From the sequence record MT764206.1: DNA of 64,000 bases; one strand, given 5' to 3'. The notes beneath the pieces are model-generated. The model was not told the DNA's origin and did not search any database. It worked only from the letters and a program-made list of their open reading frames with translations. A program made the translations under genes and the position numbers. This document shows positions 16,969 to 42,921 of this stretch, piece after piece; position 1 is the stretch's first letter, and every line of letters starts with the position of its first letter. The stretch comes from Escherichia phage JEP6.

Positions 16969-17230
16969 TGTAAACTGATTTTTTCAACTTTCTTACTTCA
17001 CCACGTAATTGACGATTCAATTCATTCTTAACCTCTGAATCAACACCTCGCATACGTCGCCATTTATCTGAGCGAAAAATGTTTTCAACCATATCTTTAT
17101 GACTTACCCCATCAGGAGCTTTACGCTTTCCGAAATAGTCATAATCACGCACTTTTAAGTCTTTACGACGATACGTTTTACCCATAGAGTTTAATTTCCT
17201 TAGCAACTGAACTAAATACAGCACGGTCAC
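16892..17230 (-). CDS. Hypothetical basic protein
   Basis: 112 aa ORF, K/R-rich; the true start may be internal. Confidence 0.4.
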   Translation of the reverse strand: MTVLYLVQLLRKLNSMGKTYRRKDLKVRDYDYFGKRKAPDGVSHKDMVENIFRSDKWRRMRGVDSEVKNELNRQLRGEVRKLKKSVYIDDDFDYNISQRVAKRKSNECYRYS

Positions 17231-17360
17231 AAATCATGTGTTTATGTAACTTAAGTATAAGATAATAAACATCATAACCATTTACGTAAGTAACGCGAAC
17301 AGCATTACCATTAATAAGATAATACTGTCCCTTTTTAATTTCTTTATCAATCATAACCAT
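17178..17360 (-). CDS. Hypothetical protein
   Basis: 60 aa ORF downstream of the promoter at 17388-17420. Confidence 0.4.
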   Translation of the reverse strand: MVMIDKEIKKGQYYLINGNAVRVTYVNGYDVYYLILKLHKHMICDRAVFSSVAKEIKLYG

Positions 17361-17387
17361 ATCAATTCCTCAAAGGCAATTCATGTG

Positions 17388-17420
17388 TTAATAATACCAC
17401 GGTTTGAACTTGTTGTAAAC
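17388..17420 (-). promoter_or_regulatory. Early promoter cassette copy
   Basis: taataatacca ... gtaaacaactttgtgaaa. Confidence 0.5.
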
Positions 17421-17499
17421 AACTTTGTGAAAATATTTTAGGGAATGATAAGAAAGGAACGATAGCTTAGAATGGTAATATACAGAATGTAAGAAAGAA

Positions 17500-17514
17500 A
17501 GGCCCAGAAGGCCT
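17500..17514 (-). terminator. Hairpin after the glutaredoxin-like gene
   Basis: aggcccagaaggcct. Confidence 0.45.
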
Positions 17515-17517
17515 ATC

Positions 17518-17970
17518 TTAGTCTTCTATGATATCTCTATCATATCCAAGTGAAATGAGGGTTTCTTTGAAGTGTTTAATGTTCTTTTGTCTGGAATCAT
17601 TAATGAAAATGACTGGATAACGAATGTTAAGAGATGTGAATCCGGCGCGTTTAGCAAGAGATACAATCAGTGGACGATCATACTCAATCTTACCATTATT
17701 TGTAAGAACTTTATAGAAAGTAAAAGGAGCACTGAGCTCCTTTAGAAGTTTTGTAACTGATTGACATCCAGGACAACGACCTACTTCATCTGGAATTCCA
17801 TAGACTTCAATCTTATTCTTTAAGTTCGAGTTTTGTTCCACGAGAAATAATTCCTTGGTAAGCCCAATAAGGAGGATTAACAGAATCCTCGCCAGAGTTT
17901 TCTTCAGGAAAATAAACCTGGATAACGAAGCCGGATTCATCAAAGGTAAAATAAACCGTAGGCAGTTCAC
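17518..17970 (-). CDS. Glutaredoxin/NrdH-like redoxin (CPGC active site); start uncertain, conserved domain begins near 17814
   Basis: KIEVYGIPDEVGRCPGCQ... redoxin motif; no in-frame ATG near the domain start; the long ORF overlaps the upstream ORF by about 158 nt. Confidence 0.6.
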   Translation of the reverse strand: MNCLRFILPLMNPASLSRFIFLKKTLARILLILLIGLTKELFLVEQNSNLKNKIEVYGIPDEVGRCPGCQSVTKLLKELSAPFTFYKVLTNNGKIEYDRPLIVSLAKRAGFTSLNIRYPVIFINDSRQKNIKHFKETLISLGYDRDIIED

Positions 17971-18124
17971 CTAACAAATCGGCACGAGCGTTGATTTCTT
18001 CGAGGTCTTGTTCACGTCCAGCCCAGAAGCTTGGGTTCAGACTACATTCATAGAAATAATAGTCATTACCGAACATATCAAAACCATTCCAACTCTCTAC
18101 TACATACCGCTCAAAACTAATCAT
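17813..18124 (-). CDS. Hypothetical acidic protein
   Basis: 103 aa ORF. Confidence 0.5.
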   Translation of the reverse strand: MISFERYVVESWNGFDMFGNDYYFYECSLNPSFWAGREQDLEEINARADLLGELPTVYFTFDESGFVIQVYFPEENSGEDSVNPPYWAYQGIISRGTKLELKE

Positions 18125-18126
18125 AA

Positions 18127-18342
18127 TTAAGCCTTTTTATCAAGAACAGCATTCAGCTTGTTAGTAATTTTATCCAGACGCTCATTGAACTCACTAGAAG
18201 ATAAACCTTTTTCTGGAGAAATTAAGCTAATCACGAAAAATATAGCAATAAAAGGAATAAGGAAAATAGCTCCAACTGCCATAAACAGAAAGAATGTTAC
18301 AGTTGTAAGAAAATCAGCTAAACCTTTACGAAATTTATACAT
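18127..18342 (-). CDS. Small membrane protein
   Basis: 71 aa with a central hydrophobic helix. Confidence 0.5.
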   Translation of the reverse strand: MYKFRKGLADFLTTVTFFLFMAVGAIFLIPFIAIFFVISLISPEKGLSSSEFNERLDKITNKLNAVLDKKA

Positions 18343-18457
18343 ATTTTATCCTTAATTAATTAACCAAGCATTGATAAGTACTAAACTATACTGCGAATAA
18401 AATTCTGGACCAAAATGAAAAATCATATCATTTATAGTATCCATAATGTAATTCAAT

Positions 18458-18928
18458 TTAATCATGTTTCCACACCCCATCGGTATTTGACCAAAGTCGC
18501 TGATTATCTGATCCTCGCCACAACTTTTTAGTCGGAAGATTTTTCTCATACTTCCCATCAATAATAACATCAACATATTTAAGCATTTCTAGTTGTTTAA
18601 TATCTTCAAACTTATATCCTGTCCACAACCAAATGCTTTTATTGGGATAAAGATTTTTAATAGTTTGAACCACAGAGTGAATCACGTCTCTGTTATCAGG
18701 ATAAAGAGGGTCACCTCCAGTTATAGTCAATCCTTCTATATAATCATTATTCAAACATTCAATTAATTGCTCTAGTGTTTCACCAGTGAATGGAATACCA
18801 TTTCTAGCATTCCATGTTGATTTATTATAACACCCTTCGCATTTATGCAAACATCCAGTAACAAAAAGAACGGTCCTGCACCCAGGACCATTAACAAAAT
18901 CGCAAGGATAAAATCTATCATAATTCAT
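18458..18928 (-). CDS. nrdG: Anaerobic ribonucleotide reductase activating protein (radical SAM)
   Basis: CxxxCxxC cluster CLHKCEGC; 156 aa. Confidence 0.9.
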   Translation of the reverse strand: MNYDRFYPCDFVNGPGCRTVLFVTGCLHKCEGCYNKSTWNARNGIPFTGETLEQLIECLNNDYIEGLTITGGDPLYPDNRDVIHSVVQTIKNLYPNKSIWLWTGYKFEDIKQLEMLKYVDVIIDGKYEKNLPTKKLWRGSDNQRLWSNTDGVWKHD

Positions 18929-20205
18929 TGGTGTTTAACCCTATGCATGATTTCTTTATTTTTACCGAGATTAAATCCGCGTTCGTTCGGATTTCCCAAA
19001 TAACCACATGTTCTTCTTATTGTGTTCATCTTTTTAGGATCAGTTTCTCCACAAATAGAACAAACAAATCCGTTTTCAGTAGGAGTCATTTCATGGGTGC
19101 TTCCGCATGTAAAACATTTATCTACTGGCATATTAACACCAAAATAATCTAAATGTTGTGCAGCATAATCCCATACGGCCTCAAGACCTTTTAAGTTATT
19201 TTTCATATCAGGAAGTTCAACATAAGAAATGTGACCACCTGTCGCAATGAAATGATATGGCGCTTCACGAGAAATCTTTTCAAACGGAGTAATATTTTCT
19301 TCTACTGAAACATGGAAACTATTAGTGTACCAACCTTTATCGGTAACATCTTTTACGCTTCCATATTTTTCTGTATCAAGTTTACAGAAGCGATAACAAA
19401 GGTTTTCAGCAGGAGTCGAATATAAACTAAAAGCAAATCCGGTTCTTTCAGTCCACTGTTTAAGATGGGCATTCATTTTAGTTAAAATTTCCTGTCCAAT
19501 ATCACGACCGACAAGAATATTCAATTCATGAATACCAATGTATCCTAAAGACACTGAACTTCTACCGTTTTTAAATAACTCAATTATGTCGTCATCAGGT
19601 TTAAGACGAACCCCAAATGCACCTTCTTGGTAAAGAATAGGAGCAACAGTCGCTTTAACTCCTTTTAAGGAACTAATTCTACACATCAAAGCTTCAAAAC
19701 ACAAATCCATTCGTTCATTGAATAATTCAACAAATTTCTGTTCATTGAACTGTGTTCCAATATAAGAATCTAACGCGATGCGAGGAAGATTCAATGTTAC
19801 AACACCAAGATTATTACGTCCATCAAGAATTTCATTGCCAGTCGAATCTTTCCATACGCTCAAGAAACTACGGCAACCCATTGGAGAAACAGGAACAGAT
19901 GAACCAGTGATAGCTTTATTATTCTTAGCTGAAATAATATCAGGATACATCCTTTTGCTTGCGCACTCTAGAGCAAGCTGCTTAATATCATAGTTCGGAT
20001 CGTCTTTGTAAAGATTAACACCTTCTTCAACAAACATAACAAGCTTAGGGAAAATAGGAGTTATCCCATCACGACCAAGACCTTTAATACGATTTTTCAG
20101 AATTGCTTTCTGAATCATTCGTTCAGTCCAGTCAGTTCCCGTACCAAATGTAATTGTTACAAAAGGCGTTTGTCCGTTTGAACTAAAGAGAGTATTTACT
20201 TCATC
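18925..20205 (-). CDS. nrdD: Anaerobic ribonucleotide reductase, exon 2 (approximate 5' boundary)
   Basis: Glycyl radical motif RRTCGYLG and Zn ribbon CFTCGS...CSICG; the ORF's first ~17 codons are probably intron. Confidence 0.85.
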   Translation of the reverse strand, partial: DEVNTLFSSNGQTPFVTITFGTGTDWTERMIQKAILKNRIKGLGRDGITPIFPKLVMFVEEGVNLYKDDPNYDIKQLALECASKRMYPDIISAKNNKAITGSSVPVSPMGCRSFLSVWKDSTGNEILDGRNNLGVVTLNLPRIALDSYIGTQFNEQKFVELFNERMDLCFEALMCRISSLKGVKATVAPILYQEGAFGVRLKPDDDIIELFKNGRSSVSLGYIGIHELNILVGRDIGQEILTKMNAHLKQWTERTGFAFSLYSTPAENLCYRFCKLDTEKYGSVKDVTDKGWYTNSFHVSVEENITPFEKISREAPYHFIATGGHISYVELPDMKNNLKGLEAVWDYAAQHLDYFGVNMPVDKCFTCGSTHEMTPTENGFVCSICGETDPKKMNTIRRTCGYLGNPNERGFNLGKNKEIMHRVKHQ

Positions 20206-21249
20206 ATTATATTCAGCATGAGTCGCAAATTCATGCCCGTTTATATGAAACAACAAAATTTGGATAGTCCATAGATATGCAACGTTCTTTTATAGTGCTA
20301 GGATGAAAATTTAGCGCTTTAGCTGCTTCTATATAAGACGTATACTTAATACCGTCAACAACCACATATTCAGGAACTTTATGAATAGTAGTCTTAATAC
20401 TCAAAACAAGAGGATGAGTTTCGACTTCACTTTCAGTGCAATTTAAATATTCCGCTGCTTTTTTAAAACTTCTAAAAGTTTTATTTTTAAGCTTTATCGA
20501 TACTTGTTTTTTACTTTTTCGACTATTGATATTATTTTGCACATGTTCCTTAGATCTTCCGTTTTTAGCATAATATTCAGCTACAGAAGATTTTATATTG
20601 TTTTTATGAGATTCGGATAACACTTTACCCTTATGAGCATCTCTTAATTTTTGAATATGTTCTTCAGTATCCGGATGCTTATAAAACTTTTTACCGCCTA
20701 TGGATTTATTTAAACATTTTTTGCTATAAAAATATTTACGTATGACCTCTTCTTCATGTTTTAATGCATCTTTATAACTATCAAATGTTTTTAAAATTAT
20801 CCATTTAGTAGGTGTATCAGTTTTTAAGCGTTCATTTATATACTTAGATGACGTTGTGTAAGTTTTCCAGTTTGTGGGCTTGTTTTTAATTGTTCTAAAT
20901 TTTTTATAACCGATATAAATGTCGCCATTAGAAAACTTAACTAAGTATGTAAATGCGTCTTTATCTTTTATTTTAGTACAACGTCTTTTTATCCATTTCA
21001 TTGTTTCACCTCGTATTCATAAGATAATCTTATTTATACAAGATGACTGCTGCATGTCGCCATGCAGATTAGACTATATCTTCATCTTTCGATGCCGGCC
21101 GTTTCGAATAGCATTAGCTTCTATTCTACACCGCTACATTCATCACGGTTAGTCGTTAGGCATTTAGTTCAAAAGAACATTTAGCACGGGATTGTCTACT
21201 AGAGAGGTTCCCCGTTTAGACCGGTTTTACATGAGCCTGAATTAAATTA
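20206..21249 (-). mobile_element. Group I self-splicing intron in nrdD (boundaries approximate) carrying a homing endonuclease ORF
   Basis: nrdD reading frame interrupted; about 250-nt structured non-coding core at 21002-21249 followed by the endonuclease ORF. Confidence 0.8.
20231..21001 (-). CDS. GIY-YIG homing endonuclease (I-TevII-like) encoded within the nrdD intron
   Basis: AFTYLVKFSNGDIYIGY GIY-YIG motif; basic C-terminal DNA-binding region. Confidence 0.85.
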   Translation of the reverse strand: MKWIKRRCTKIKDKDAFTYLVKFSNGDIYIGYKKFRTIKNKPTNWKTYTTSSKYINERLKTDTPTKWIILKTFDSYKDALKHEEEVIRKYFYSKKCLNKSIGGKKFYKHPDTEEHIQKLRDAHKGKVLSESHKNNIKSSVAEYYAKNGRSKEHVQNNINSRKSKKQVSIKLKNKTFRSFKKAAEYLNCTESEVETHPLVLSIKTTIHKVPEYVVVDGIKYTSYIEAAKALNFHPSTIKERCISMDYPNFVVSYKRA

Positions 21250-21787
21250 ACTCATACGCCTGAAACGCGTCGTATACGTCTTTTTCTGTTTTAGATTGGG
21301 CATAATTCAACGCATCAGCGATTTGCCATTTTTCTGCATCCTCAATATGTTTTGCATAGGTGCGTTTAACATATGGAGAAAGTACTTTATCTACATTCGC
21401 AAAAGTCGTTCCGCCATATTGATGAGAAGCAACCTGTGCAGTAATTTGTGCCATAATTGCAGTAGCAACGCCGATTGATTTAGGAGTTTCAATCTGCGCA
21501 TTACCGAGCTTAAATCCGTTTTCAAGCATTCCTTTTAAATCTACTAAACAGCAATTAGTAAATGGAAGAGCAGGGGAATAATCAATATCATGGAAATGGA
21601 TAATTCCGCTTTCATGCGCTTTCATAATAAAAGACGGGACCATATTTTTGGCAATGTGTTTAGACACAATACCAGCCATAAGGTCCCGTTGAGTTGGAAA
21701 AACACGAGAATCTTTATTAGCATTCTCGTTTAAAAGGTCTTTATTAGTTTTATGAATCAATCCTTCAATTTCTTTTTCAATTGTCAT
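21250..21787 (-). CDS. nrdD: Anaerobic ribonucleotide reductase, exon 1 (approximate 3' boundary)
   Basis: MTIEKEIEGLIHKTNKDLL... N-terminus; ATG overlaps the gene 49 stop. Confidence 0.85.
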
Positions 21788-22257
21788 TTTAAACTCTTTC
21801 TAAGCTGCTTCTTAAATGAAGCTATTAATTGTGTTTTGGTGTCAGATTCATTATATTCAAATCCTCTTTGAAGCATCTCAGCCATCATTTCCTCTTTTCC
21901 TAAACGAGAAAATTCCTTTGATTTATCTCCAACAAAGTTAGGGTGAATATTATTTTGGGTGTAATCGGATTTTAAATAAGTAAGTAAATTTTCTAGCCAT
22001 TCAAGATAATCAACGCCTTGTCCTTTTAAACCAGAACGATTAAATTTATGTTTCATTTGACCTTCTGCAGCATTGCAGAGATTACAAAGCAATCCACGTA
22101 CCTTTCCTGCTTTTGGTCCATTTAATTCATGGTCATGGTCGAGGTGATTAGCTTGAACATCAGGATTTAGTTCTCGTTGGCAAATTAAGCATTTACCGTT
22201 TTGTGCATTATAAAATTTTTGTTTTTCTTCTTTGTATAATTTGCCAGTCAATAACAT
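21784..22257 (-). CDS. 49: Endonuclease VII (Holliday junction resolvase)
   Basis: 157 aa MLLTGKLYKEEKQKFY...; Zn-binding CLICQ...CNLC; HNH-like core. Confidence 0.93.
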   Translation of the reverse strand: MLLTGKLYKEEKQKFYNAQNGKCLICQRELNPDVQANHLDHDHELNGPKAGKVRGLLCNLCNAAEGQMKHKFNRSGLKGQGVDYLEWLENLLTYLKSDYTQNNIHPNFVGDKSKEFSRLGKEEMMAEMLQRGFEYNESDTKTQLIASFKKQLRKSLK

Positions 22258-22264
22258 AATAAAA

Positions 22265-22287
22265 CCCTTACCTTGAATAGATAAGGG
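22265..22287 (-). promoter_or_regulatory. RBS-sequestering hairpin upstream of gene 49, with a late-promoter-like ATAAATA box at 22288-22296
   Basis: mRNA reads AUAAUAAAUA-CCCUUAUC-uauucaa-GGUAAGGG-uuuuauu-AUG; the SD AAGGG sits in the 3' arm. Confidence 0.55.
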
Positions 22288-22299
22288 TATTTATTATTT

Positions 22300-22476
22300 T
22301 CAAGTATTGTAAAACATTCGATGCAATCGCTTATATTGTCGAATCATCTTTTTAGTAGGACGAGAATAAGTTCCTACACAAGTGGTCATATTAGGGTCTG
22401 TAGAATTTCCTTTAATAAAAAGTTTCCAAACCTTACCGCCATTTAACTTTTCAGTATAAATCAATTCAGTTTTCAT
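22300..22476 (-). CDS. Small hypothetical protein (49.1 position)
   Basis: 58-codon ORF MKTELIYTEKLNGG...; ATG overlaps the upstream stop (TAATG); below the track cutoff. Confidence 0.35.
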   Translation of the reverse strand: MKTELIYTEKLNGGKVWKLFIKGNSTDPNMTTCVGTYSRPTKKMIRQYKRLHRMFYNT

Positions 22477-22940
22477 TAAAATGCTCGGTCAGAAAAAGAA
22501 ATTTGAGTTTCAAGCCATTCAATATATTCTGCCGCAGCTTGCATCAAATTTCCTTCATAACCATCGTTGTTTTCTTGCGCAGCTAATTTAGCTAATGCAT
22601 ATGAAATGCGTTCACCTTGAAAAGCGGCTTTAGGTTTATGAATAGCTTGATCAACTCGTTCTACAACTTCTTCAATTTCGCCATTTTCTACTGATTCAGT
22701 ATTCCACAAGCACCAATACGTAATTGGCTTATCGTAGATGTTAATAACCTTTCCATCAGAAAGTTCAATTTCAATAATTCCAGTATCAGGTTCTATATCA
22801 TCTTCACATTCTTTTGCGAGTTCACGAACTTTAAAGACAGTACCTGCACTAAGTTCTGGCCAATAATTACATAGCCCTTTATCAGCACGATTAATTCTAA
22901 ACCACTTATCTACTGTAATCATGTCCCATCTCCATATCAA
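22476..22940 (-). CDS. Hypothetical acidic protein; possibly the Lon-protease inhibitor pin by position
   Basis: 154 aa ORF at the expected pin position; identity not confirmed. Confidence 0.4.
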   Translation of the reverse strand: MIWRWDMITVDKWFRINRADKGLCNYWPELSAGTVFKVRELAKECEDDIEPDTGIIEIELSDGKVINIYDKPITYWCLWNTESVENGEIEEVVERVDQAIHKPKAAFQGERISYALAKLAAQENNDGYEGNLMQAAAEYIEWLETQISFSDRAF

Positions 22941-23045
22941 TTAAGTCATTTATCGTAGGTTCATTATATACTATTTCTTCATCAGTGTAAACCGGTTCTT
23001 CCGGCTCTGGCTCTACAGTTTCCCATCTAGCCGCCCACCAGGGTT

Positions 23046-37436: not shown

Positions 37437-37602
37437 ATATTAATTTCCAGAAGTTTTAAAATAATTCGCTTTTGCTTAAATATTTCCATAGTTAAATGAT
37501 CAGTATCTTTTTGGCCAATTCCAATGGCAAAACCTTTATTAGCAGCGAGTTCAATTAAATTATCAAGTTCACGTGACACTTCATATTGTAACTCAGAACT
37601 AT

Positions 37603-37815
37603 TCATTTCGGTTTACCTTCTTTAACGAAATCTGGATAAGGATAAAATCCCGAATAAAATCCTTCACCTTTATGATTGATGCATCCTTTATTAGAACAAT
37701 AGCACCAATAATCGAAATCACAAGCCATTTCATCGTTGCATAAAGCAAAAACAACTGGCCATTTACACTTTTCACAATGGGCATTTTTAAGAATACTAGT
37801 TTGGCTCATAACCAT
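37603..37815 (-). CDS. Cys-rich small protein
   Basis: CEKCKW...C..DEMAC...CYCSNKGC; 70 aa. Confidence 0.45.
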   Translation of the reverse strand: MVMSQTSILKNAHCEKCKWPVVFALCNDEMACDFDYWCYCSNKGCINHKGEGFYSGFYPYPDFVKEGKPK

Positions 37816-38033
37816 GTAACCTTTAAGCAGTATTCTTCTACATGCTGTTTACGACCTTTCTTATCAATAAAGGTATATTCAACGAATGTTCCAATGTAGT
37901 CTTTATCTACATCATGCGGACTATTAATTGGACATTTAGTACGGCAAATGCGTTCCCATTGACGAATAATTACTGCCTTATTCTTTGGGTCATATGGATG
38001 TGGATAATGTATATTCATAATAATGGTTCCCAA
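37806..38033 (-). CDS. Hypothetical protein
   Basis: 75 aa ORF. Confidence 0.45.
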   Translation of the reverse strand: MGTIIMNIHYPHPYDPKNKAVIIRQWERICRTKCPINSPHDVDKDYIGTFVEYTFIDKKGRKQHVEEYCLKVTWL

Positions 38034-38482
38034 TCAACAATCACAATTTCTAATTTAGAGGAATATGTATCTAAAATCCCCTCAATAATATCCCAGTTCC
38101 CTTTACCTATGCCTGCACCAATCCTAGGCATATAGATTGTAGGTTTAATCAGTTTATTTTCACCAAACTCATTTAATTCTAACATACAATTCATTAAAGC
38201 GAAATACTCAAAATTTGGCCCTGGTTGAAATTGAGTATAAAGATTAAAGCAGTAAGCTTTATGAGTCCTAAAGTATTTTTCATAGACTGAATAAGAACCA
38301 AGTTTAGTTACATCACCCCATTCAGTCTGTAGTTTATCAGCTTCCAGAATTTTAGGGAAAGCTTTGGTTAATTGACCTGCGACTCCAGCTTTCATCGTAT
38401 GAAAACAATTGCATCCATGCGCAATATTTTTACCTTCAGCGAAAAGGGCGACAATATCGCCCTTGATATATTTTACAATCAT
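38015..38482 (-). CDS. Macrodomain protein (TARG1/DarG-like ADP-ribose hydrolase fold)
   Basis: GDIVALFAEGKNIAHGCNC...AGVAGQL and YMPRIGAGIGKGNW resemble the TARG1/C6orf130 motifs (SLAHC...GAGIA; MPRIGCGLD). Confidence 0.6.
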   Translation of the reverse strand: MIVKYIKGDIVALFAEGKNIAHGCNCFHTMKAGVAGQLTKAFPKILEADKLQTEWGDVTKLGSYSVYEKYFRTHKAYCFNLYTQFQPGPNFEYFALMNCMLELNEFGENKLIKPTIYMPRIGAGIGKGNWDIIEGILDTYSSKLEIVIVDWEPLL

Positions 38483-38826
38483 TTAGTACTCAATCCTCGA
38501 TTATAAGAATCTACCAAACGGTCAACCATTGAATGACAAGCGGCTTTATCTTTCTCCTCCGCAACTGAACATTCTAAGGTATTCCACTTTTTAGCATATC
38601 GTTTTAATAATGTATCGTTTTTGTATCTGCTTGATTTATCTCTTTCTCCATCTTTATATGCATATATTAATTTCTGCGCAAATTCAGCTTGGCACGCTTT
38701 ATTTTTCCCACAATAATCTGCCGCAGTGCGGTTTACATATTCTCTAATTTCAGTATATGATGTATCTGCTGACGCAGAAGCAGAAAATGAAATTAATCCT
38801 ATACATAAAACCAAAATTTTAGTCAT
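38479..38826 (-). CDS. Secreted Cys-containing protein (vs position by order)
   Basis: Signal peptide MTKILVLCIGLISFSASASA; 115 aa. Confidence 0.5.
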   Translation of the reverse strand: MTKILVLCIGLISFSASASADTSYTEIREYVNRTAADYCGKNKACQAEFAQKLIYAYKDGERDKSSRYKNDTLLKRYAKKWNTLECSVAEEKDKAACHSMVDRLVDSYNRGLSTK

Positions 38827-38992
38827 TTACTATTTCCAAAAGTTTATTATTTTTAAGGTAATTAGCCTTTTCTAGGACTTCAGAAGCATATTTAGAACCA
38901 GCTTTAACATTCCATCCTGAATTATAAGAGGATATTGCTTTTCTTATATCGCCCTTATGTATATTTAACCAATAAGAAAGTTCAATGTACGC

Positions 38993-39364
38993 TCAGGAAG
39001 CTGAATTGGATCGTTTATTCAACATTCTTTTTATTTCAGCATCGGTCATATTATAACCAAGTTCCTTAACTCTTGCTCGCATAGTAGGCAAATAATTTTG
39101 GAACATTCCGTAGGCGTGATGCTTTGGTTTAGATTTTAAATTAACTCCGCCAGAGCTTTCTTGCCATAAAATAGCAGCCATTATATGACCTAATCCGCTC
39201 TTGTGGATATTTTTGTGTGTTTTATATTTTCCATCCTTAGAAAATTGTTCCCCGAATTGATACGCGTAACGCATGTTATCGAGTTGGACATTACTGAAAG
39301 TATGCTCGGAGCTATGTGCCATCATTGAAATGGCCAATAGACCAGCGAGTAGTGCTTTTCTCAT
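38993..39364 (-). CDS. Secreted protein with lytic-transglycosylase-like motifs
   Basis: Signal peptide; LWQESSGG ... AYGMFQ (SLT-like E-S / G-x-M-Q motifs). Confidence 0.45.
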   Translation of the reverse strand: MRKALLAGLLAISMMAHSSEHTFSNVQLDNMRYAYQFGEQFSKDGKYKTHKNIHKSGLGHIMAAILWQESSGGVNLKSKPKHHAYGMFQNYLPTMRARVKELGYNMTDAEIKRMLNKRSNSAS

Positions 39365-39371
39365 GCTTACC

Positions 39372-39833
39372 TCATTGAGTTTTAATTACTGCTTTAGAAG
39401 CCTTTCCTGGTAAACGACGACTGTTGATAATTGCCATCCTACATTGAAGTGACGGGTCTTTGAACTTCGCGTTAGGTTTACAAACTGTAAATCCAAGCCA
39501 AAGATTTCCATCTGTGATTTCTAGACGTCCAGGACGATATTCAACCCCATCAATAAAATCCTCGTCAATGTCAGGACGCGGAGGCATACTCAGGAATTCA
39601 TTAACTTCTAAAACATGGTCTTTTATTTTATGGAATAATTCAAAAACATATGTCTCATCAATCTCCCGTTGAATTGCGCGATCAAGAAGATGTTGAGAAT
39701 ATTTTAGATGAAACGATGAGACCCCTGCTGCTTTTGATGCCTCACGAATCTCATTGTTAATTTGACGAAACTCCGACTCAAAGTGACGACGAAGCTTATT
39801 TCGACGGATAAAAACTTCTGTGTTGATAGTCAT
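39372..39833 (-). CDS. regB: Endoribonuclease RegB
   Basis: 153 aa at the expected position; recognised N-terminus MTINTEVFIRRNKLRRHFESEF. Confidence 0.8.
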   Translation of the reverse strand: MTINTEVFIRRNKLRRHFESEFRQINNEIREASKAAGVSSFHLKYSQHLLDRAIQREIDETYVFELFHKIKDHVLEVNEFLSMPPRPDIDEDFIDGVEYRPGRLEITDGNLWLGFTVCKPNAKFKDPSLQCRMAIINSRRLPGKASKAVIKTQ

Positions 39834-39857
39834 GTTATTCTCCTCTTAACTGATAGA

Positions 39858-39890
39858 AAAATTATACCACAGTCAAGAGGAAAAGTAAAC
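39858..39890 (-). promoter_or_regulatory. Early promoter upstream of regB
   Basis: aaattatacca ... gtaaac. Confidence 0.5.
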
Positions 39891-39892
39891 AA

Positions 39893-40171
39893 TTATTCTT
39901 TAAATCTAATCAATTTATTCATAGACTTTGAAACTTCTGCACGAACCTCATGTAGATTTTTGAGCTGTTCAAGACGCTGCTCATAGTAAGCAATTTCATC
40001 TTCTTCGAGACAGTCCTGTGAATCTTCTTTAAGATAACGTGCATAGTCCTGGAAAGCGTTACGAACTACTTCCTGGAAGTCATCAAGACTTTGAATTTTC
40101 TTAGGAGCAACAGATACACGACGAGGGGCAGTATAATACTCATAACCAAACCCTGCGCTTAATTGAGCCAT
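39893..40171 (-). CDS. Hypothetical protein (vs.3 position)
   Basis: ATG at 40171 overlapping the upstream stop; the track start at 40213 is less likely. Confidence 0.45.
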
Positions 40172-40473
40172 TAGTATTTTTCCTCTGGTTGGAACACAGC
40201 ACGGCAAGCCCACATACTGGCTTCTTTGAGTTTCGTTTTAGCAATAGTTAACTGATCGAGGCTTTCGGCGTAATTCTTCGCGAGTTCACAGTCTTCACAA
40301 TTATCTAGTGCTTCCCAGAATTCATCGTATAAAGCATCAAAGATAAGTCCTAAACGAACTTCAGCGTCTTTGATAGCATTCACTTTACCGATTTTCTTTT
40401 CAGTATGCGGCTTATAACCCTTAATATCTTCAATCATATTTGACTTCCTCACCAGTACATAAATCATATTCAA
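40171..40473 (-). CDS. Hypothetical protein at the vs.4 position; candidate anti-CBASS Acb2 by synteny
   Basis: About 90-100 aa, third ORF upstream of regB; identity by map position only. Confidence 0.4.
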
Positions 40474-40651
40474 CTAAACGAATAGGTTCATGAATGCCAT
40501 ATCCTTGAACAGAAATTTCTGTAGTAGGATAAATTCCATCAATATCGCCCATATTCCACGCTTCATTAAATTGCTGTTCGCCTGAATTACTAAACCATTC
40601 GGCGAAAGCATTTAGCACATCTTCAGAACCTTCAATAATTATCTTTGCCAT
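40430..40651 (-). CDS. Hypothetical acidic protein
   Basis: 73 aa ORF. Confidence 0.45.
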   Translation of the reverse strand: MAKIIIEGSEDVLNAFAEWFSNSGEQQFNEAWNMGDIDGIYPTTEISVQGYGIHEPIRLVEYDLCTGEEVKYD

Positions 40652-41013
40652 TACAAACTCTCGGTAAAGGTACGAGCGATAACGTCGCGCTGCTGTTCCG
40701 GAGTCAGAGAGTTAAAGCGAACTGCATAACCGGATACACGGATGGTCAGCTGCGGATATTTTTCCGGATGCTTAACTGCATCTTCCAGAGTTTCACGACG
40801 CAGAACGTTAACGTTCAGGTGTTGACCACCTTCAATTTTAACTGTAGGCTGTTGCTCAATTTCAATTTCACGGGCATGCAAACCGTAGAAAATTTCTGGG
40901 TCTACAAAAGAGTCCTCTTTAAAGGTTTTAGAAACGATAATTCGTGCTTGAATACCATCTTCAAAATAAATAGTACCTTTATGTGTGCCTTCAAGAATTT
41001 GATATGCTTTCAT
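40651..41013 (-). CDS. Autonomous glycyl-radical cofactor (GrcA/YfiD-like)
   Basis: C-terminal [25 protein letters not shown] glycyl-radical motif; 120 aa. Confidence 0.75.
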
Positions 41014-41020
41014 ATAAACC

Positions 41021-41350
41021 TCAATTAGAAAATAAATTTATCCAAGATTGTTCTTTAATTAAAAATGGCTCAGAATCATATGCCATTAAACTCTGTGTGA
41101 TTAGTCCTTTAAAAGGCCCATCAATAAATTCCATGGTAAAATATGGAATTTTATTCATTAGCCGTGCATTAGGAGCAGTACACAAAACTCTGCATCCTTT
41201 GAATACACCTTTTTGTAATTTGTATTGCTTAGGATAAAATTCACTTAAAATGTTATTTTTTGCCAAAATTTCAAAATGATTCACCAATTTATTTTTAATA
41301 GTTTTTGGCGAAAAATAAAGATATTCGAAAAGCTGAGTGTCTGTCATCAT
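41021..41350 (-). CDS. Hypothetical protein
   Basis: ATG at 41350 overlaps the upstream stop (ATGATGA). Confidence 0.45.
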
Positions 41351-41886
41351 TGCATTCCGATTACGAAAAACTGCGGACGAGTAATACCACCAATACAACA
41401 TTTAATATTACAGCAGCAGTGTACAGTGTCAATGTGGACACTATAAATCTTATCCATATCAGGAGATTTGACAGGCTCATCAATTATATATAAAATTCGC
41501 GAAAGCGATAAACCTCTGAACTTGCTTCCTTTATTACCAATAAAACTGCGCACAGAATCAGTAAATAAACGAAAACGTATATCATCATTAGAATAACGCG
41601 AAAATTCCTTTTTAATGTTATTTGCAGAAATTTTAGCGTAAGCTGAAGTATTAGAAAGAACAATAACCGTTCCGCCATCATATAACCAATTAGCAGCAAA
41701 GTTAGTCACAGCAATTGATTTACCTGATTGACGTCCACCATCTAGTCGAAGTGTGCAATACTGTTTAAGTAAGTCTTCAAATGGTGGGACATAACCGTTC
41801 TTACAAATTTCTTCTACTCTAGCATCAGAATGGTGTGTAAAAGCATTCATCAGGGATAGATAAGGTCCAGTTAAAAATGTTCTCAT
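41347..41886 (-). CDS. Hypothetical protein occupying the denV-side position
   Basis: 179 aa; DGGRQSGKS P-loop-like segment; Cys-rich tail; no similarity to endonuclease V. Confidence 0.45.
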   Translation of the reverse strand: MRTFLTGPYLSLMNAFTHHSDARVEEICKNGYVPPFEDLLKQYCTLRLDGGRQSGKSIAVTNFAANWLYDGGTVIVLSNTSAYAKISANNIKKEFSRYSNDDIRFRLFTDSVRSFIGNKGSKFRGLSLSRILYIIDEPVKSPDMDKIYSVHIDTVHCCCNIKCCIGGITRPQFFVIGMQ

Positions 41887-41966
41887 TTAGTTTCTCTTTT
41901 AGGTTGGGCCATTCCGTGGCGCATGAATTGTCCATTTCTGTATTTACCCCTCCAAGTAATTATGAA

Positions 41967-41997
41967 TATACTATCACAATTCTAGGAGAAAGTAAAC
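41967..41997 (-). promoter_or_regulatory. Early promoter cassette copy
   Basis: tatactatca ... gtaaac. Confidence 0.5.
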
Positions 41998-41999
41998 TG

Positions 42000-42302
42000 T
42001 TATTTACCTTTAATTACTTTAGCTGCTTCGATAGCCGCTTGCTGAAGGTCATCCATAGACATACCGAATTTAGAAGCAAAGTTATCAATTTTCTTTTCGA
42101 CAGCATTCAAAGGCTTGGCCTGTTTACCTTCATTAGCGCCAGGAAGAGCGAGAATACGCTCTTTGTCAATATAAAGGCTTACAAGTTTCTTACGGTCTTT
42201 ATCGGACAAATCATGAAATGAATGGGCCTTTTTATTTATAGCGGCTTCTAATTTACCTGCACTCACTCGCGCTTCAGTAATAAATTCTTGATATGTTTTC
42301 AT
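42000..42302 (-). CDS. Internal head protein (IPII/IPIII-like) with capsid targeting sequence
   Basis: MKTYQEFITEARVSAGKLEA... CTS with L-x-E cleavage context; 100 aa. Confidence 0.7.
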   Translation of the reverse strand: MKTYQEFITEARVSAGKLEAAINKKAHSFHDLSDKDRKKLVSLYIDKERILALPGANEGKQAKPLNAVEKKIDNFASKFGMSMDDLQQAAIEAAKVIKGK

Positions 42303-42357
42303 ATGTTTCCTTTAAATGTAAATATTTTAATTGGTAATTGACTGTTTAAGTAACTGT

Positions 42358-42391
42358 GAATATATTATCACAATTCTAAGAGAAAGTAAAC
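42358..42391 (-). promoter_or_regulatory. Early promoter cassette copy
   Basis: tatattatca ... gtaaac. Confidence 0.5.
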
Positions 42392-42396
42392 TGCTT

Positions 42397-42921
<525 letters not shown>

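Follow-up and report, generated by a model that had tools for sequence, protein, structure and literature searches.

The stretch of DNA that we analysed (64,000 nucleotides, here called the window) comes from a T4-type phage of the genus Tequatrovirus. On its minus strand, it encodes a protein of 120 amino acids that starts at an ATG codon and carries the glycyl-radical motif RVSGYAV in its C-terminal part. We will call this protein Vs.6, after its counterpart in phage T4. The features of the gene are as follows.

40651..41013 (stop codon included), minus strand: orthologue of vs.6/Y06I, a GrcA-like autonomous glycyl radical cofactor of 120 amino acids (from the listing of open reading frames, Pfam, TIGR04365, the structure 6owr, and the match to T4)
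41019..41022, minus strand: GAGG Shine-Dalgarno sequence, six bases from the ATG of vs.6 (read from the sequence)
40837..41013, minus strand: 5' half of phage type, codons 1-59, A+T-rich (34% GC), which encodes the N-terminal module (counterpart of YfiD residues 1 to ~65)
40664..40835, minus strand: host-identical tract of 172 nucleotides (nucleotides 179-350 of the gene, codons 60-117) encoding the glycyl-radical domain, with 100% DNA identity to E. coli grcA in a codon alignment
40720..40740, minus strand: glycyl-radical motif RVSGYAV, residues 92-98 (from a motif scan; invariant in two alignments)
40649..40653, minus strand: TAATG stop/start overlap of vs.6 with a downstream open reading frame of 73 amino acids at the position of vs.5 (from the sequence and the open reading frames 40430..40651 and 40651..41013)

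The gene and its counterpart in T4

The original prediction had placed a 120-residue open reading frame with a C-terminal glycyl-radical signature in this region. We found it at 40651..41013 on the minus strand, and its C-terminus reads exactly as it was quoted there. Pfam's Gly_radical family (PF01228) matches Vs.6 with E = 2.5e-18 and 67 bits, for a cutoff of 22.2 bits. The best match to a solved structure is to E. coli GrcA/YfiD (6owr, E = 9e-42), followed by pyruvate formate-lyase (PFL; 5e-26). Homologs of Vs.6 are encoded in 1,588 phage records, from Straboviridae, T5-like Demerecviridae, and jumbo phages. The domain match, the structure match, the homologs, and the dN/dS values given below rule out a chance open reading frame at 40651..41013. 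There is also an antisense open reading frame (40645..41028, plus strand, 127 amino acids), which we took to be a shadow of vs.6.

The Shine-Dalgarno sequence of vs.6 overlaps the TGA stop codon of vs.7, which is the upstream gene. At the other end, the TAATG overlap suggests that vs.6 may be translationally coupled to the open reading frame at the vs.5 position, as part of a tightly packed cluster. Between positions 39300 and 42500, neither promoter-like sites (12, versus 11.1 expected from shuffles) nor terminator-like sites (2, versus 1.8 expected) were enriched.

[quoted passage not shown]" The two genes are identical at 355 of 363 nucleotides (97.8%), and the two proteins are identical at 118 of 120 residues (98%). 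At residues 54 and 73, the protein from the window has Q and R, and the T4 protein has P and H. Since R73 is also the residue in E. coli GrcA, the copy in the window is slightly more host-like than Y06I from T4. Using megablast, we found that the closest DNA match to the open reading frame is from Escherichia phage HY03 (99.7% identity), and that at least 80% of the open reading frame is covered in 744 phage records.

The gene's neighborhood is also conserved. The order in T4 is denV, vs.8, vs.7, vs.6, vs.5, vs.4, vs.3, regB, and the window keeps this order from vs.7 through vs.6, vs.5, vs.4, and vs.3 to regB, in agreement with the annotations of both HY03 and T4. A colinear block (37805-41949 in the window, 60712-64862 in T4) is 97.2% identical. 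Unlike T4, the window lacks denV and ipIII from this neighborhood. Both the identity and the position in the cluster place the gene in the T4 vs.6 orthologue group (Tevenvirinae); on this comparison, the open reading frame is the orthologue of T4 vs.6, which encodes Y06I.

Because Vs.6 shares 98% of its amino acids with T4 Y06I and has the same neighbors, it belongs to a gene family that is already known. As a spare-part protein, Y06I has been textbook material since 2001, and the gene carries the label GrcA in databases. What is of interest beyond this is confined to two points: an indirect link to the phage's anaerobic ribonucleotide reductase via formate, and the tract of host-derived DNA.

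Likeness to GrcA and PFL

The C-terminal half of Vs.6 is shared with both GrcA and PFL. Over residues 58-120, Vs.6 is 100% identical to residues 65-127 of E. coli GrcA (P68066; 6owr) and ~80% identical to residues 697-759 of PflB (PDB 1h16 and 1mzo), whose radical loop it shares exactly. G95 (codon 40729-40731) is the radical glycine; its counterparts are G102 in GrcA and G734 in PflB (numbering from PMC12338860). The original prediction had staked itself on the conservation of the glycine-containing motif in an alignment with E. coli GrcA and with the C-termini of PFL. We made this alignment, and the motif is invariant. Across GrcA, the C-terminus of PflB, and phage homologs, 38 positions in the C-terminal half are invariant, including the glycine motif. 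When we aligned a larger set of GrcA homologs from phages and bacteria, 38 positions were again invariant, and 37 of these are in the C-terminal half. Vs.6 thus carries a C-terminal glycyl-radical domain of the PFL type, with the RVSGYAV loop.

Vs.6 is far from a complete enzyme of the PFL family, which has a barrel of ~750 amino acids and catalytic cysteines: it corresponds to just the last ~63 residues of PFL. It has neither the 10-stranded barrel of PflB nor the catalytic residues Cys418 and Cys419. Alone, Vs.6 cannot be an enzyme, and it would act only in trans on damaged PFL. As in the GrcA/YfiD class, it is a stand-alone protein: the 120-residue open reading frame has its own start codon, Shine-Dalgarno sequence, and stop codon. 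E. coli GrcA is also a small stand-alone protein (~14 kDa), but it has 127 amino acids instead of 120. The two also differ in their expression. Vs.6 is expressed from a cluster of early/middle phage genes, while E. coli GrcA is expressed from the host's own regulated promoter.

Among the NCBIfam models, the best match to Vs.6 is TIGR04365, which is the equivalog model for GrcA (IPR011140). Residues 20-120 of Vs.6 align to positions 25-126 of this 126-position profile (E = 1.2e-45). The score of 154.9 bits is below the cutoff of 170 bits because the N-terminal half of Vs.6 is divergent.

The N-terminal ~58 residues of Vs.6 are only ~30% identical to E. coli GrcA in an HMM-based alignment, yet they can be aligned. 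The DNA of the 5' half is essentially unalignable with E. coli grcA, and just upstream of the host-identical tract, the ungapped identity is 45%. Four residues (Q5, R24, K29, and D34) are conserved between the N-terminal halves of Vs.6 and those of other phage and bacterial GrcA proteins, and dN/dS in the N-terminal half is ~0.09-0.22. Judging from these sequences, the N-terminal half is under purifying selection and is old sequence of the phage lineage.

We built an AlphaFold2 model of Vs.6 with an alignment of 57 sequences. The model has a beta-rich N-terminal domain (pLDDT 86-89 over residues 1-50), a low-confidence linker (residues 58-69), and then the glycyl-radical hairpin and helices. 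Searches with Foldseek matched the model to YfiD (7e-7) and to PFL (2.4e-3), and the C-terminal half matched both. With the N-terminal domain as the query, we found weak matches to KOW/SH3-like domains (E of about 0.2). We considered whether this domain might be a folded domain that is specific to phages. We rejected this idea because AlphaFold2 gives Salmonella GrcA the same beta-rich N-terminal topology.

According to papers on YfiD, its N-terminal residues 1-60 promote binding to cleaved PFL (cPFL) and activation, and they are dispensable for catalysis. Since the divergent half of Vs.6 lines up with this region, Vs.6 offers a natural variant for dissecting how damaged PFL is recognized. The same divergence could be read as the mark of a decoy, which would compete with the host's PFL or GrcA for PflA, or would cap cleaved PFL, so that fermentation is redirected or shut down. 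The part of YfiD that governs recognition and activation of cPFL is indeed the part that differs from the host's protein (~30% identity), and inhibitors of host functions are common among the early genes of phages. But a pure blocker would have no need for a catalytic half and a radical glycine that are identical to the host's, and the phage and bacterial proteins are predicted by AlphaFold2 to share their N-terminal topology. Also, Y06I is reported to restore cleaved PFL in vitro, according to the account in PMC8683613. We consider a decoy to be very improbable.

Proposed rescue of PFL and the relation to NrdD

As related in PMC8683613, Wagner et al. 2001 found that E. coli YfiD and T4 Y06I both restore PFL that has been cleaved by O2, once the radical has been installed by the PFL activating enzyme (PFL-AE). 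No spare-part proteins other than YfiD and Y06I have been validated (Andorfer et al. 2021, PMC8683613), and the role of Y06I as a spare part for oxygen-cleaved PFL is summarized in PMC12338860 as well. Papers on YfiD give a KD of about 14 uM for its binding to cleaved PFL, and they report that PFL-AE radicalizes it essentially only when it is in complex with cleaved PFL. The G102 radical then abstracts a hydrogen from C419 of PflB (PMC12338860). In the searchable literature, we did not find an in vivo phenotype for a vs.6 mutant.

The earlier statement that T4 encodes a YfiD-like cofactor that can rescue oxygen-damaged PFL is borne out, since the open reading frame is the orthologue of Y06I and since the T4 protein has published biochemistry, as these sources recount it. 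The identity of Vs.6 with Y06I, and of its C-terminal part with that of GrcA, comes directly from our alignments. For the allele in the window, PFL rescue and the formation of the radical by PflA are predicted: we carry them over from the T4 protein, which is 98% identical, and from YfiD.

We propose that Vs.6 acts as follows. In a fermenting host that experiences fluctuating oxygen, O2 would cleave the host's PFL at the radical glycine G734. Vs.6 would dock on the cleaved PFL with the aid of its N-terminal half, and its C-terminal 61 residues, which are identical to those of E. coli GrcA, would replace the lost glycyl-radical loop. The host's PflA, with S-adenosylmethionine (SAM) and reduced flavodoxin, would install the radical on G95. 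The radical would be handed on to Cys419 of PFL, and the conversion of pyruvate to acetyl-CoA and formate would resume. Because the phage silences the host's genes and breaks down the host's chromosome, neither PFL nor the host's GrcA would be resynthesized, which is probably why the phage keeps a copy of its own. The rescued PFL would provide ATP, via acetyl-CoA, and formate, which could serve as the reductant for the phage's NrdD. Taken as a whole, a GrcA-type spare part of the phage for the host's PFL, with these steps and with the mosaic evolution that is described below, is the best explanation for this gene, and we hold it with high confidence.

The window also encodes an anaerobic ribonucleotide reductase and its activase, about 20 kb from vs.6:

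18458..18928, minus strand: nrdG (Pfam Fer4_12, 1.4e-48; Radical_SAM)
18925..21787, minus strand: nrdD, in the exon open reading frames 21242-21787 and 18925-20256 (Pfam NRDD, 1e-122 and 1e-40; Gly_radical, 1e-25)
20231-21001: open reading frame for a GIY-YIG endonuclease between the nrdD exons (match to SegE_GIY-YIG)

In the nrdD region, no Rfam family reached its gathering score. The original prediction had both NrdD and NrdG in the window, and Pfam agrees. It went on to credit the phage with a full anaerobic radical toolkit. NrdD, NrdG, and Vs.6 are all present, but the phrase is an overstatement: among the window's open reading frames of 80 or more amino acids, only NrdG has the CX3CX2C motif of radical-SAM activases. 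With this as the sole activase motif in 64 kb, Vs.6 must rely on the PflA and the PFL of the host.

The presence of these genes raises another explanation for Vs.6, namely that it is a spare radical domain for the phage's own NrdD. If NrdD were cleaved by O2 at G580, then Vs.6 would dock on the truncated NrdD and would be radicalized by NrdG. Besides the presence of nrdD and nrdG in the same window, the gene neighborhoods of some homologs fit with this idea. In 7 of the 80 viral loci that we sampled, the vs.6-like gene is adjacent to nrdD or nrdG, in the order nrdD/nrdG/vs.6 or nrdD...vs.6...nrdG, so that it lies directly downstream of nrdG or between the two. These loci are from Aeromonas phages (Ah1 and contigs of the size of Aeh1 or 65) and from jumbo phages of ~350 kb. 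At this locus of Aeromonas phage Ah1, the genes run nrdA, nrdB, one hypothetical open reading frame, nrdD, nrdG, vs.6, nrdC, nrdH, and vs.6 overlaps the end of nrdG. The T5-like phages that carry homologs of vs.6 also have NrdD. A role in nucleotide metabolism was the subject of speculation by Nolan et al. 2006 (PMC1524935), and PMC8683613 considers it conceivable that other glycyl radical enzymes have spare parts, too.

The sequence of Vs.6 argues against this explanation. When we compared Vs.6 to the window's NrdD with BLASTP, the E value was 2.7 and the radical loops were not aligned. In NrdD, the radical loop RRTCGYLG (within RRTCGYLGNPNERGF) is preceded by a CxxC...CxxC zinc ribbon. A spare part for NrdD would duplicate both the RxxCGYLG loop and the zinc ribbon, and Vs.6 has neither the loop nor any CxxC pairs. 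Instead, as described above, its radical domain is 100% identical to that of E. coli GrcA and ~80% identical to that of PflB. Even the homologs that are adjacent to nrdG all keep the PFL-type loop, with a sequence of the GGQHLNVNV type. Furthermore, PflA and NrdG are substrate-specific activases. The question of whether the module services NrdD, which the original prediction had raised, thus receives a mostly negative answer. Direct repair of the phage's NrdD by Vs.6 appears unlikely from these comparisons, and we give the full scheme, with cleavage at G580 and activation by NrdG, very little credence.

Although the question of servicing NrdD can largely be closed on these grounds, it can be replaced by another link, from PFL to formate to NrdD to dNTPs. 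Formate is the reductant of class III ribonucleotide reductases, including NrdD from T4 (PMC4493059). Because formate is both a product of PFL and the reductant of class III enzymes, and because homologs of vs.6 lie beside nrdD and nrdG in other phages, it is plausible that Vs.6 and NrdD are linked metabolically instead of physically: the rescue of PFL would supply formate and ATP for anaerobic dNTP synthesis.

A host-identical tract within vs.6

The 172-nucleotide tract in vs.6 is identical to E. coli grcA, and the last four codons of the gene differ from grcA only by synonymous changes. At the level of BLAST, the similarity extends over 40647-40835, with 97.4% identity. The GC content also changes within the gene: it is 34% in the 5' half and 48.6% in the 3' half (nucleotides 179-363), while the window as a whole has 34.5% and grcA has 48%. 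All complete E. coli genomes in the comparison (5,426 of 5,426) match the tract, at 95-99% identity, and it ranks as the best match in each record that scores at least 95%.

When the entire 64-kb window was compared to these 5,426 genomes with megablast, the grcA tract was the only match. By this measure, this strictly lytic T-even phage, which degrades host DNA, carries no other host-identical DNA within the 64 kb.

The GrcA proteins of Serratia and Xenorhabdus have the same C-terminal 61 residues as Vs.6, so identity at the protein level would not by itself reveal the mosaic. Synonymous codons are more informative. Relative to E. coli grcA, the gene in the window has synonymous differences at 4 of 60 codons and T4 has them at 2 of 59. 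This is similar to a cryptic lineage of Escherichia (2 of 61), and it is well below Citrobacter (14 of 61) or Salmonella (24 of 59).

To describe the distribution of the tract, we compared 80 viral loci to 81 bacterial grcA genes. The tract is present in Tequatrovirus-like and Mosigvirus-like copies and in no others. The copies from phages of Klebsiella (KP179 and Matisse) and Enterobacter (CC31), and from T5-like, Aeromonas, and jumbo phages, are 65-88% identical to the best bacterial grcA. The longest exact run in these other lineages is at most 56 nucleotides, among 81 bacterial grcA genes that do not include those of K. pneumoniae, Aeromonas, or Vibrio. Within this set of sequences, we see no evidence of recent conversion by host DNA in the Klebsiella, Enterobacter, T5-like, Aeromonas, or jumbo-phage lineages.

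The two halves of the gene also differ in their divergence between phages. In the 5' half, the dS that separates the window from Mosigvirus-like copies is 0.48; in the 3' half, it is 0.07-0.12 (p = 3e-4 to 3e-3, Fisher's exact test on raw differences). Klebsiella phage KP179 is equally distant from the window in the two halves, with a dS of 0.92 in each. In a sliding comparison of phage copies, an island with 98-100% identity is flanked by 89-90% identity in the 5' half and by 73% identity in the downstream gene, and Mosigvirus ATK47 has the same pattern. Across our phage database, 638 records have at least 95% identity in the 3' half, while 431 do in the 5' half. Identities in the 3' half are bimodal, with just 8 records between 90% and 95%.

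The most economical explanation for these patterns is gene conversion from host to phage after the split of Tequatrovirus and Mosigvirus. An old grcA homolog of the phage lineage would have had its 3' half overwritten by host grcA DNA in the Tequatrovirus and Mosigvirus that infect E. coli. The conversion may have occurred more than once, or it may have occurred once and been followed by exchange between phages. The shared 5' boundary of the tract does not distinguish between single and repeated conversion because this is where the homology ends.

We considered two other histories for the tract and rejected both. The phages might continuously track their current hosts, but the E. coli allele is still found in Tequatroviruses whose isolation hosts were Yersinia, Serratia, Citrobacter, or Salmonella. 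Or, the DNA might have moved from phage to E. coli, but it has an E. coli-like GC content and it shows graded divergence to the grcA genes of Citrobacter, Salmonella, and Klebsiella.

A host-identical tract with a host-like GC content could also be a recent and accidental pickup of the 3' end of grcA, in which case the open reading frame might have no function at all. This would be hard to reconcile with an open reading frame that hundreds of independent isolates have kept intact and that has homologs in so many phage records, or with a 5' half that appears to be old phage-lineage sequence under purifying selection. The gene also comes with a Shine-Dalgarno sequence and with stop/start coupling to its neighbors, and the T4 protein is reported to be active in vitro, at least as PMC8683613 presents it. 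Of the explanations that we have discussed, a functionless pickup strikes us as the least credible.

If vs.6 is a functional chimera, then conversion after the divergence of these phages, whether once or repeatedly, might keep the gene matched to the current host's PFL and PflA, and the payoff might be formate for NrdD in the microaerobic gut. We offer this adaptive reading tentatively; it is possible, but we would not bet on it. A full-text literature search, whose reach did not extend to key older papers on T4, found no description of the mosaic at the DNA level.

The vs.6 gene provides an unusually clean and datable case in which part of a virulent T-even phage's gene has been replaced by host DNA, and it bears on how lytic phages gain and maintain auxiliary metabolic genes. 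A related system is found in cyanophages, whose host-like auxiliary metabolic genes, such as psbA, show intragenic recombination between host and phage. As with psbA, a lytic phage carries a metabolic gene of its host, and this gene shows exchange with the host's copy. Unlike in psbA, only one half of vs.6, itself a very small gene of a T-even coliphage, shows the exchange, and the tract is all but identical to the allele that E. coli carries today.

A host-identical tract in vs.6 and bacterial-like sequences on viral contigs

Within vs.6, the GrcA-like gene, 172 nucleotides (window 40664-40835) are 100% identical to grcA of Escherichia coli. When the entire 64-kb window was compared to 5,426 E. 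coli genomes with megablast, this tract was the sole match. The tract is common to Tequatrovirus and Mosigvirus even though its flanks have diverged (dS of 0.48 in the 5' half of the gene versus 0.07 in the 3' half). The tract looks like the product of host-to-phage gene conversion.

Another bacterial-like sequence is on a 19-kb contig from IMG/VR (locus L117 of our homologue comparison):

L117, 3001-3294: GrcA-like ORF, 150 aa

The 3' half of this ORF is 91% identical to a Yersinia grcA, far nearer to a bacterial gene than the remaining phage copies from outside Tequatrovirus are. The ORF could represent a second instance of host origin, or else a fragment of host DNA. Full-length ORFs of PFL size (643-760 aa) are found on three IMG/VR contigs that are catalogued as viral (L158, L160, and L165); they may belong to host sequence or to the flanks of prophages and not represent PFL encoded by a phage.

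GrcA-like genes beside nrdD and nrdG, and the N-terminal region

In Aeromonas phages and in jumbo phages of ~350 kb, vs.6-like genes either follow nrdG immediately on its 3' side or lie in the interval that separates it from nrdD:

L087 (Aeromonas phage Ah1), 4522-5384
other sampled loci: L164, L166, L130; L113, L115, L116

The radical loops of these adjacent genes are still of the PFL type, not the NrdD type.

In the AlphaFold2 models of Vs.6 (mf0f8d9fa84ea) and of Salmonella GrcA (m9254a012ec85), the N-terminal 50 to 60 residues are beta-rich and confidently predicted (block-mean pLDDT of 84-89). According to NMR work, residues 1-60 of YfiD are disordered. This N-terminal region may fold upon binding.

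The split nrdD, the vs.4 position, and comparison with T4

Other features of the window are:

18925-21787, minus strand: nrdD, as two exon ORFs interrupted by a segment with an endonuclease ORF
20231-21001: GIY-YIG/NUMOD1 endonuclease ORF, within the segment that splits nrdD
40171-40473, minus strand: 100-aa ORF at the position of T4 vs.4, two genes downstream of vs.6

Across window positions 17000-23000, Rfam gave neither a group I intron nor any other family at the gathering score. The 100-aa ORF matches Acb2_Tad1_hairpin in Pfam (3.9e-19), which is a family of anti-CBASS cyclic-nucleotide sponges.

Within the region compared, ~370 nucleotides of the window (37437-37805) have no counterpart in T4. 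JEP6 lacks the denV and ipIII of T4 (window 41886-42400 versus T4 64862-66384); on the T4 side, the alignment skips twice (64862 to 65384; 65823 to 66384).
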